A stretch of DNA of 64,000 bases from the NCBI GenBank assembly GCA_037379345.1, contig CM074511.1, forward strand, positions 28,278,862 through 28,342,861. Direction: 5' to 3'. Below are positions 31,706-61,215 of the stretch, piece after piece (position 1 is the first letter of the stretch; each line of letters begins with the position of its first letter). The notes below the pieces were generated by a model that searched no databases, was not told where the DNA came from, and saw nothing but the letters and a program-made list of their open reading frames with translations. Made by a program: the position numbers and the translations under genes. This DNA comes from Perna viridis. Taxonomy: Eukaryota.

Positions 31706-31910
31706 CTTCTGCACCCAACACTCAATACTATACAAGTAAATAAAGACATTGGATTAATTACATCAATGATGGAATCCCTCACAGATGTACAAGATAAGCT
31801 CCACATTATAGTATTTAATATTTAGCACTGTGATAGCGGATTTCGGGGATTGTCCGATTCCGTTTTTATTGTATTGTATGTATTATAATTTTAATAAATG
31901 ATAAAAAAAA

Positions 31911-31962
31911 TGATTCTCGCTTAGGGTGCGAGAGGTCCCGGGTTCGAATCCCGGACGAGCCC
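31911..31962 (+). pseudogene. 3' fragment (nt 21-72) of tRNA-Pro(AGG) after the Tx1-A poly(A)
   Basis: TGATTCTCGCTTAGGG...GAGCCC followed by the normal AGG-type spacer. Confidence 0.95.
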
Positions 31963-32484
31963 AATTTTTGACAACGGTACATTCCACAAAATGGCGTCAC
32001 GTACCACTTCGAATGTTTGTAATAATATATGTTTGCGACGATTTTTATTTTGTTCATGAAGTAATATTAAACGTATACGATACAACGCGCAAATTTGATA
32101 TTCCGACGCTGACTTTGACAATGGAGAGTGTTATTCAATATTCCAGCCAAATGGTGTTGGTATAGCATCTTTCTAGTATATTCATATGTATCCTATTTTT
32201 GATTCCATTGTTTAAAGTATCGAATATTTCGCGTTTAAAATACTATATGTATGTAAGTATGTATGTATGTGTTGGTCTCGCGGTAGTCATCTTGTTCTTC
32301 AATTTACCGCGGTAATGACAGATATTAGGAAGTTCTTGATGCACTAGTATGCCGTTAGTGGTTGGCATGTTTTGTACTATTATCTTGATTGATTTTGAAT
32401 TTGTACAGCTTTGCCACGTTTACGTTGTAATCGGTTTCTCTTCCACATTGTTAAATAGATTAAATCTACCACTAATATTTAAGC

Positions 32485-32556
32485 GGCTCGTTGGTCTAGG
32501 GGTATGATTCTCGCTTTGGGTGCGAGAGGTCCCGGGTTCGAATCCCGGACGAGCCC
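32485..32556 (+). tRNA. trnP: tRNA-Pro(UGG), type A
   Basis: Intact copy. Confidence 0.97.
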
Positions 32557-60100: not shown

Positions 60101-61028
60101 TGATGCAGGTATTATCAAGATTAAGGACTTAGCATATGAATGCAAGAAAGGTTTTATGAAGGAAACATATATTCAAGATATTGTATCTCAAAAGTTCCCT
60201 GACGTTTCCGTTGATAAAATTATTAAAGTAGTGAAATGTATTATGAATTGTATGCCACAAGATTATATGGTTTTAGTTGAAGAAAATGCCATCACTTGTA
60301 AACTACCTGTTTTAAATATTATTTACAGTGTAAATGGTAGAAAGTGTGCTTTGCCTAATACAACAAGATCATTTTATGATATACTGTTAAAGACATTAAC
60401 ACGGGAGCCTAATTCTGTAAAATACTGGAGTGAATTATTTTCAGATTTTGATGTTCAAAAAGTTCAAAAAGTTTTGAACTTTTCATTTTTACAGAGTGAT
60501 TGGATTGAGTCATCATTTAAAATTTTCCATAGAGTTTTCTTTACTAAGGAGAAACTGATGAGATGTCATATTACTGCTGATTCTATGTGCCCAGTTTGCG
60601 AAGATGTACATGAGGACTTGGAGCATTTGATTATTGTGTGTAGATGTTTGACTCAGTTCAATGACTTTTTAAAAGATTTTTTACATAACATATTGTGTAA
60701 TAGTTCTGCAAACTTTGTCAATACACTAGATTTCAATTATATGTGTTACTTTGGTCTATTCAAGAAGGATAAAAATATAAACTTATACTTTGTAAATACA
60801 GTTTTATATGCTAGAAGATTTTGTGTTATAAAGAGGAGAAATATCTCTATGAAGGATGACAAATTGATGGACATAGTGCCATATTTTAAAAATGTTCTGC
60901 AAAAACATGTGAATTATGCATACTTGTATTATAAACAGAAGAAGTACATGTATTTATTTGAAAAGTATTATTTAAACAAAAATCCTGTATTAAGAATAAG
61001 TAATGATGAAGTACATATTGACTTTTAA
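57126..61028 (+). CDS. Tx1-B ORF2: APE endonuclease, RT, Cys/His domain (1300 aa; real start may be ATG 57168)
   Basis: SLNCNG, LQET, GDFN, SRIDY, SDH; KTPGSDG, RPITLL, DQEKAFD, KQGCPIS, HADD; CPVC..HLIIVC. Confidence 0.96.
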   Translation: MESPIVNIIILLFVMATYNFISLNCNGLCDRNKRDCIFSLCSERKYDIVCLQETFWNNDTFEDLKKDKILWSGDIFASNSNCNRQGVAILVSKSLKNVFKVCECLPGRFIHIQGIINDRTVDIFNVYAPNSVSEKCLFFEVCKSKIEGDGYVIVAGDFNTTLSPLDKSGKTAFYADRSVKHLTSIMNEKCLFDVWRDRNIGVKMFSRKQVVQGFLTQSRIDYFLVSSNIKSCIKNIFYRDTCFSDHCIVSMKLDFSEVERGPGIWIFNHSLLADEEYVARIRKLLEDEIGTDFYNSNPLIWWDNLKFSIKRISQIYGKEKQKEINRQYFKLQNKLQELSVKSACGIKIDHVKYLELKSELETIEKHRCNGAILRSKCQHALESDKNTAYFLSLERYKQNKNLICTLKNCDGNAVNSTVELLNVVHDFYEKLFSCVNTDNDAINDMLDCVDVKVDDIDITKCDDDICIDEIVQSLKGMKKGKTPGSDGLTIEFYLYFLDELTPVLKYIYDSIEENKVLSRSMRYGMINLIYKNRGDKSMLKNFRPITLLNVDYKILARVMANRFKFVLPKIISPTQSCCIIGKDISDTTASVRDIIDLVEMDNLECYLLKLDQEKAFDRVGHEYLFSVLQKFGFGEKFISWIKIFYTDIFSTVKCNGFLSKYFQLKNSVKQGCPISALLYVLVAEPLSTMIKKNSSIRGLNIPNTNVEEKIFSHADDTTLILSDKNSVNEAFKVLHLYEQASGAKLNKDKSEILALGTGTISKNELDAWSIRECDGVLQILGIWIGKDKSLCDSLNWDCKVQSILKLLNFWKMRHLSIHGRLTLINTLLMSKLWYTLMVVNIPEKHYLEIKKICINFLWNDKPSLVAYDVITNKVLDGGLNFPDIFHKMYAFRLKFLSRLLDVDYNAVWKITCLYFFSKVQEMNLGVEILFCDFTHRQLGCLPDFYKSMLYSWGKIRHSMEIEINVNNVFDVPLFCNPMIVNGGSMLYLRTFIDAGIIKIKDLAYECKKGFMKETYIQDIVSQKFPDVSVDKIIKVVKCIMNCMPQDYMVLVEENAITCKLPVLNIIYSVNGRKCALPNTTRSFYDILLKTLTREPNSVKYWSELFSDFDVQKVQKVLNFSFLQSDWIESSFKIFHRVFFTKEKLMRCHITADSMCPVCEDVHEDLEHLIIVCRCLTQFNDFLKDFLHNILCNSSANFVNTLDFNYMCYFGLFKKDKNINLYFVNTVLYARRFCVIKRRNISMKDDKLMDIVPYFKNVLQKHVNYAYLYYKQKKYMYLFEKYYLNKNPVLRISNDEVHIDF

Positions 61029-61163
61029 TTGACATATAATTGTTTGTTAACATTTGTTACAATTCTAACTAATACTGTGATATTGTGAATTATTGGGAGA
61101 CTAGCCCAATGGTTCTTTTATGAATGTATTTATGTGAATAAAATTTTATCAAGAGAAAAAAAA

Positions 61164-61215
61164 TGATTCTCGCTTAGGGTGCGAGAGGTCCCGGGTTCGA
61201 ATCCCGGACGAGCCC
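61164..61215 (+). pseudogene. 3' fragment (nt 21-72) of tRNA-Pro(AGG) after the Tx1-B poly(A)
   Basis: TGATTCTCGCTTAGGG...GAGCCC. Confidence 0.95.

Follow-up and report, generated by a model that had tools for sequence, protein, structure and literature searches.

How do different retroelements come to interrupt tRNA genes at one and the same place? The question is raised by a 64,000-nt stretch of the Perna viridis genome (GenBank assembly GCA_037379345.1, contig CM074511.1, positions 28,278,862 to 28,342,861), hereafter called the window. It carries a tandem array of tRNA-Pro(TGG), tRNA-Pro(AGG) and tRNA-Val(CAC) genes on the forward strand (441..62975), with 68 intact genes in the window and 116 tRNA genes over about 105 kb when neighbouring DNA is included. 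In the window the array is broken up by long interspersed nuclear elements (LINEs) of two Tx1-like families, A and B, by three copies of a shorter element C and by one long terminal repeat (LTR) element; A, B and C with all their parts lie on the forward strand. The poly(A) of the A copy (25326..31910; poly(A) 31903-31910) abuts nt 21 of a tRNA-Pro(AGG) gene at 31911, whose 3' remnant (nt 21-72) occupies 31911..31962. The poly(A) of the full-length B copy (55319..61163) ends at 61163 and likewise abuts Pro(AGG) nt 21, whereas Pro(TGG) nt 22 follows the 1.6-kb element C, at 34760 behind copy 1 (33143..34759) and at 38154 behind copy 2 (36537..38153). All these junctions are in tRNA sense orientation, as the original prediction had described them. 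Since tRNA nt 20 is an A, the choice between nt 20 and nt 21 is ambiguous, and a junction T or A is assignable to either side. The C copies represent one insertion, tandemly amplified as a 3394-bp unit: units 1 and 2 differ at three positions, an unusual 5' end is common to all copies, and in copy 3 (39931..41544) the downstream tRNA half is mostly deleted. Hence, the window records three insertion events, not five. Three independent insertions within 2 nt of a single position in a 72-nt gene exceed chance.

The genome-wide survey of junctions refutes the earlier idea that this convergence reflects a tRNA-Pro-specific endonuclease: the target sites differ in sequence, but they are the same in position. 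Altogether, 213 3' tails of young A, B-type, C and D/F-type copies were surveyed across one assembly; families D, F and their kin are absent from the window. The tail patterns were exact and excluded tails whose last position is an A, hence the counts describe a sample of young copies and not totals, and the B-type, C and D/F rows were classed by eye, aided by ARAGORN on the fetched loci. All tails except one (212 of 213) join a gene or unit of the type transcribed by RNA polymerase III (Pol III), in sense orientation. The tRNA targets cover 37 anticodon classes and 18 amino acids, with no Gln or Trp gene among the sampled tails; 15 of the 213 tails lie in 5S rRNA genes and nine in tRNA-Pro genes. 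The pattern of poly(A) joined to the Pro site occurs nine times in the genome, always within the window's array. Family A gave 38 matches, of which 30 were retrieved; without one duplicate locus and three loci lacking a 3' end, 26 copies remained. Among the 18 copies of at least 94% identity, 16 join tRNA genes, one joins a 5S gene and one unrelated DNA, and all eight older copies (77-81%) join degenerate tRNA-Met copies. The B-type tail (n=94) was found in 82 tRNA genes, six 5S genes, three copies of a module X, two heads of a tRNA-derived short interspersed element (SINE) and one gene for an RNA Z; modules X and Y and RNA Z are units with Pol III-type boxes described below. The C tail (n=31) joins 27 tRNA genes, one 5S gene and three modules X. 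For the tail of D/F and kin (n=73) the targets are 54 tRNA genes, seven 5S genes, two modules X, three modules Y and three SINE heads, while the remaining cases are one tRNA-type target-site duplication (TSD) followed by another copy and three matches without an upstream element; once these three are dropped, all 70 tails are in Pol III-type units. A and B copies of 99% identity reside in Arg, Thr, Asn, Gly, Leu, Ser, Met, Ala and Ile genes, and those of A in a 5S gene as well.

The elements thus share one insertion position across the Pol III genes of this assembly. Where not quoted from papers, tRNA numbering, A-box and B-box labels and promoter-type names follow common usage. We mapped 58 tRNA junctions; in 54 of them the first base other than A falls on mature nt 21-24, and in the other four on nt 19, 26, 26 and 37. 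Introns and long variable arms spread the distance between junction and B box over 30 to 72 nt, which rules out the B box as a ruler; rulers laid from nt 1 and from G19 are inseparable (standard deviation 2.20 vs 2.19). A site-first survey, in which nine array stretches were scanned for broken genes, gave counts that are not independent events, because array copies multiply by recombination: Pro genes are broken in 10 of 90 cases, all at nt 20-23; Leu-AAG genes in 18 of 49 (15 at nt 21-24, two duplicated copies at nt 35-37 and one obscured by mutation); 5S genes in 11 of 94, all at nt 27-29 (one appears as nt 21 via chance A matches and is actually at nt 28); and module X in 10 of 76, at the tRNA-equivalent nt 19-24. 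U6 genes are broken once in 73, at nt 72 and never near nt 27, and the break rates of module X and U6 differ (p=0.009). Element matches in the array stretches are in sense orientation without exception. All mapped sites are intragenic, and no mapped 3' end was found in the array spacers, although spacers make up most of each array. The TSDs are mostly 12-23 bp long and gene-specific in sequence; lengths of 30 and 61 bp also occur, as do deletions of target DNA.

We consider it fairly probable that this position is fixed by the transcription factors TFIIIC and TFIIIB on Pol III genes and not by the target sequence. The sequence around the nick is not conserved. With a position weight matrix (PWM) built from 24 tRNA targets, ungapped and therefore crude, the module X site ranks first, whereas the 5S site ranks only 314-452 of 1536 positions and better-scoring 5S sites are unused; hence, the 5S site is no tRNA look-alike. 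In the U6 unit, module X with its A and B boxes is used and the region of U6 nt 27 is not. Module Y receives insertions despite the T-runs after its A box. Furthermore, a dispersed SINE head that nearly matches the Leu/Ser D-arms exists in at least 660 exact copies and carries five tails, in comparison to 15 tails in 263 exact copies of Leu-TAA, Ser-TGA and Ser-CGA genes. Its use per copy is 7.5-fold below that of the Leu/Ser genes (p=2e-5, uncorrected), which could, however, also reflect silencing or purging of the SINE.

In LINEs generally, the APE endonuclease nicks the template strand, and reverse transcription of the poly(A) is primed from the freed 3' end, often at an A of the target; a second nick 12-23 bp downstream yields the TSD. 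In the present elements, the endonuclease would be positioned by the factor-loaded complex and would nick the template strand some 25-28 bp downstream of the start in tRNA and 5S genes alike, probably in DNA that is bent and exposed by the bound factors. Either ORF1p or ORF2p, the products of the two open reading frames (ORFs), might bind a subunit of TFIIIC or TFIIIB, or the bent DNA itself might be read. The insertion would then come to lie just 3' of the A box in tRNA genes and at nt 27-29 in 5S genes, and the loss of the interrupted genes may be absorbed by the large tandem arrays. The promoters of tRNA and 5S genes have TFIIIC and TFIIIB in common, and in yeast a tRNA gene with both factors bound is hypersensitive to DNase I from +27 to +37 (PMC11724288). 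The ORF1 protein of TRE5-A binds TFIIIB, and TRE5-A reaches tRNA as well as 5S genes (PMC5911963). More broadly, we would give an even chance to the proposal that the clade docks on the TFIIIC/TFIIIB complex and cuts, some 25-28 bp downstream of the start, any Pol III gene loaded with these factors. It would then be an animal counterpart of Ty3 and TRE5 that interrupts its target, with a mode kept across families that are about 42% identical, and its insertions would map X, Y and Z as bound by TFIIIC.

Several points weigh against a position set by the factors, and part of them support an APE domain that directly reads a degenerate A-box-like sequence or shape, with the open chromatin of active arrays adding bias. 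In all non-5S targets (tRNA genes, X, Y, Z and SINE heads) the nick lies 13-17 nt past the T of an A box, so that sequence readout fits those sites too, and among the 24 tRNA targets, position -1 is an A in 16 and position +1 a G in 20. The lone U6 insertion at nt 72 is far from the start and follows an A-box-like stretch at a distance of 15 nt (PWM rank 52-121 of 1318), and this event fits an A-box mimic better. The hairpin loop of the clade's endonuclease has the length of that in Tx1L and conserved basic residues, and the Tx1L endonuclease is sequence-specific in vitro on naked DNA (PMC1950540). The targeting by Dada elements has been ascribed to primary sequence (PMC3706591, PMC8869645). 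In yeast, the 5S complex contacts DNA differently from the tRNA complex (PMC11724288) and protects -45 to +120 (PMC10245719). Moreover, the distance of +25 to +28 was counted from 5S nt 1 and, by eye, from short motifs that contain an A and precede the tRNAs by 1-5 nt, and the start-to-nick distances of tRNA and 5S genes may differ by 2-3 nt. One A copy (locus L048) is off target, Val-CAC genes are broken in none of 34 cases in comparison to the Pro genes of the same survey (p=0.06), and the whole basis is a single assembly. Nevertheless, direct readout by the endonuclease seems rather unlikely, given the low PWM rank of the 5S site beside its unused better-scoring neighbours, the under-use of the SINE heads, and a site at 5S nt 25 that resembles Arg-CCT, is preceded by three As and by eye is skipped for nt 27-29.

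A third possibility is that the enzyme attacks an intermediate of Pol III elongation about 25 nt into the gene, such as a paused bubble, an R-loop or a hairpin of the displaced strand. The strict sense orientation and the similar start-to-site distance in tRNA and 5S genes would agree with it, as would the placement of the nicks near loop-stem borders in the secondary structures of these RNAs. However, U6 is transcribed by Pol III and has no break near nt 27 in 73 copies, while the non-tRNA modules X and Y are efficiently hit, hence we regard such an intermediate as improbable. Near-random insertion followed by survival in redundant arrays and unequal crossing-over, or an assembly artefact, is still less credible: amplification is real, as seen from the threefold C unit and other duplicated copies, but survival does not explain base-level position and single orientation in eight families on many contigs, the lack of mapped 3' ends in spacers or the gene-specific TSDs. 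Finally, a tRNA-Pro-specific endonuclease, suggested by the 10 of 10 mapped insertions of the Pro/Val array that lie in Pro genes, has next to no probability left, since near-identical A, B and C copies occupy the equivalent position in the other anticodon classes and in 5S genes.

What the original prediction said about the lineage has fared better. The ORF2 proteins of A and B are homologous yet strongly diverged (44% identity over 1294 aa), and the view of an old Tx1-like lineage with several families in one niche is supported. At least eight families (A, A2, B, B2, B3, B4, F and D, the last with variants) can be told apart by their intact ORF2s, which are 41-91% identical. In a tree of the reverse transcriptase (RT) from 70 of 130 sequences, distant ones being thinned, they fall into one clade (SH-aLRT 97.7), and a second tree has the same shape. 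The homologues in these trees are unnamed and mollusc or fish sequences; the named homologues from the database search come from Mytilus and Patella. Unnamed and Mytilus proteins are interleaved between the families, which places the divergence of the families before the split of the host from Mytilus. A shared ancestral mode of targeting is the simplest reading. Membership in the Tx1 clade is likely from structure and sequence, with no named Tx1, Dewa, Keno or Mutsu sequence returned in the homologue and cluster look-ups. The top PDB matches of the endonuclease are L1 endonuclease and ORF2p structures, the best one being the L1/Tx1L loop graft 2V0R, which aligns without gap across the loop. 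This betaB6-betaB5 loop is constant in length across the clade; it is supportive and not diagnostic, as the TRAS1 loop also has 11 residues (PMC1950540). Taken together, the sequence data support A, B and C as products of one old clade of Tx1-like LINEs, with C as a passenger, several families sharing one niche.

Both LINEs of the window have an ORF1 upstream of an APE-RT ORF2, as expected for the L1 group, and the poly(A) 3' ends, variable TSDs and 5' truncations of the families are likewise those of APE-type elements. CCHC knuckles are a mark of Tx1 ORF1. The ORF1 of A (25510..26777) encodes CCHC knuckles and an acidic tail and is frameshifted near 25724 in the window copy; its ORF2 (26807..30658) is intact and predicts a protein of 1283 aa with APE endonuclease, RT and a zf-RVT-like part. 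In B, the ORF1 (55579-57123; 514 aa) also has CCHC motifs and the ORF2 (57168-61028; 1286 aa) is intact. Pfam detected PF03372 (APE) and PF00078 (RT) in both ORF2s; the zf-CCHC match of ORF1 was weak (E=0.002), with Cys/His motifs that align in five families. The window A copy is 99.5% identical to a complete one that lies in a 5S array, and lacks the first approximately 12 nt, the 5' tRNA half and a TSD. On its 5' side, tRNA-Val nt 1-54 are fused to a 1075-bp, 97% identical copy of the A 3' region (24250..25323), probably through a template switch that also deleted target DNA. The 5' end is normal, and TSDs are present, in other A copies; this repeat is confined to the window copy, which rules out an LTR- or TART-like 5' repeat in A. 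The left TSD of B (20 bp, Pro nt 21-40, 55299..55318) has one mismatch to the right TSD (61164-61183), and the mismatch sits in the anticodon: the left copy reads TGG and the right AGG, although the upstream flank is of the AGG type. Mutation, conversion or transduction might account for it. Dispersed degenerate tRNA-Met units hold the older A-related copies (77-81%; L040-L047 on C13 and C15), which probably multiplied from few events. One RNA-Seq run gave three reads on B and short contigs without readable end junctions. Folding of the 3' tails showed no excess stability over shuffles (z 0.67, -0.85, -0.30).

The three elements had been regarded as different retroelements, but the 3' termini of B and C are almost identical over the final approximately 17 nt, so that C is not unrelated to B. 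Copy 1 of C is flanked by a 15-bp TSD (Pro-TGG nt 22-36; left 33128..33142, right 34760-34774), and its ORF starts at 33426. Across the genome, C consists of a constant 5' end, which looks like an inverted B box, a 277-aa ORF, the B-type tail and poly(A). The ORF is intact in 23 of 30 loci (five unscored, two short), and its variants among copies comprise nine synonymous and 23 non-synonymous changes, without clear constraint. Its product had no Pfam match, found only itself among 546 candidates of 152-485 aa, gave Atlas matches of only 0.76-0.77, and was linked to the ORF1 of A or B neither by tblastn nor by Pfam. C heads fused to truncated B3 and B2 copies point to copying by enzymes of the B group, and C is probably a passenger whose RNA is copied in trans by them. 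With 1.6 kb, a coding sequence and a 5' end without tRNA head, it differs from a SINE. Two C copies in the U6 array (L099/L107) carry 38 nt at their 5' end identical to a tRNA-Lys(CTT) gene, which suggests that some C transcripts may start in a host gene or that the RT jumps to a tRNA. The window copies carry an extra 16-nt 5' piece (33143-33158), which may resemble another tRNA-Lys. A distant relative of C (40% over 96 aa) ends in a tail of its own and is joined to 5S nt 28 in a 5S array on C1 (L112, about 1015-1550). C resembles HAL1, which is likewise a non-autonomous, LINE-carried element with one ORF and poly(A) (PMC5753468); however, the HAL1 ORF derives from the ORF1 of its partner, whereas that of C has no similarity to A or B ORF1 or to any protein found.

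Regarding the non-tRNA targets, in the U6 array on C2 (L099, L120-L127) the U6 gene alternates with module X in a unit of about 690 bp. Module X has an A box, a B box, a T-run and pairable ends, and could either encode a Pol III RNA that has escaped annotation or act as a TFIIIC site for U6. An array on C11 (L218, L219, L130) with a 930-bp unit combines RNA Z, a structured RNA of about 140 nt with an A box and paired ends (minimum free energy -59 kcal/mol), with module Y, which has A and B boxes with internal T-runs; both receive insertions at the tRNA-equivalent position. None of X, Y and Z had an Rfam match; Z might be a vault RNA.

The LTR element of the window is a full-length Gypsy element (42018-53509) with a chromodomain and an env-like (Baculo_F) ORF, LTRs of 1591 bp that are 99.8% identical, and a 4-bp TSD; it lies 10 bp upstream of a Pro-AGG gene. 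As a control, nine matches of its LTR ends elsewhere were inspected; some are internal LTR-body joins and none adjoins a tRNA gene, which rules it out as a second Pol III-targeted element. In the array itself, a 13-nt T-arm deletion is common to seven Pro-TGG copies (1579, 4466, 5591, 7854, 10741, 13004 and 15891) and has spread through array amplification; the end of the array at 63400-64000 is a diverged unit (77-80%).

R1 and R2 recognise fixed 28S sequences. Like them in rDNA, several families share one multicopy niche here, although without a fixed target sequence. The Tx1 families Dewa, Mutsu, Keno, Kibi/Koshi, Tx1L and Tx1-Mar have in common with the present ones an ORF1, an APE-RT ORF2, poly(A) and multicopy RNA genes as targets, and Tx1L also the long endonuclease hairpin loop (PMC4494074, PMC3706591). 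By description, each named family has one target, Dewa the spacer of tRNA-Leu arrays, Mutsu 5S genes and Keno U2 (PMC3706591, PMC4494074), whereas the present families enter many tRNA types and 5S genes intragenically; insertion inside genes of that many anticodon classes does not fit Dewa, nor does the minor share of 5S genes fit Mutsu. TRE5-A, TRE3, NLTR-A/B and Ty1/Ty3 show the same position-specific, isotype-independent Pol III targeting (PMC5911963, PMC5006619), and one of them, the APE LINE TRE5-A, is guided by TFIIIB to 5S genes as well (PMC5911963). The dictyostelid and yeast elements insert upstream or downstream and spare the gene (PMC5911963, PMC5006619), while the present animal clade interrupts it, and TRE5 inserts in antisense, in contrast to the sense orientation found here. 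Hence, the fixed, isotype-independent position at tRNA and 5S genes corresponds to the TRE5/TRE3 type and the intragenic insertion does not. Dada elements also enter tRNA genes near the A box, as well as 5S and U6 genes, but they are DNA transposons with one gene type per family and a TSD at nt 8-13 (PMC3706591, PMC8869645). No intragenic, isotype-independent LINE was found in the literature searched; Repbase, which includes 14 oyster L1-Tx1 entries (PMC10294476), and an earlier Tx1 survey were outside this search and may note tRNA targeting.

According to published descriptions, an animal LINE with a specific target reads one DNA sequence, and targeting of Pol III genes by way of host factors, always beside the gene, has been reported from yeasts and social amoebae. 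The present clade joins both, with one intragenic position in many sequences. It offers a direct test of whether a host transcription complex can aim a LINE endonuclease, for which intact enzymes from eight families are at hand. The original prediction had also considered a site-specific integrator as a tool; since many Pol III genes are hit, the clade provides no single-site integrator. Furthermore, the insertions point to unannotated Pol III-type modules, and they show how the large tRNA and 5S arrays of a bivalve lose genes.

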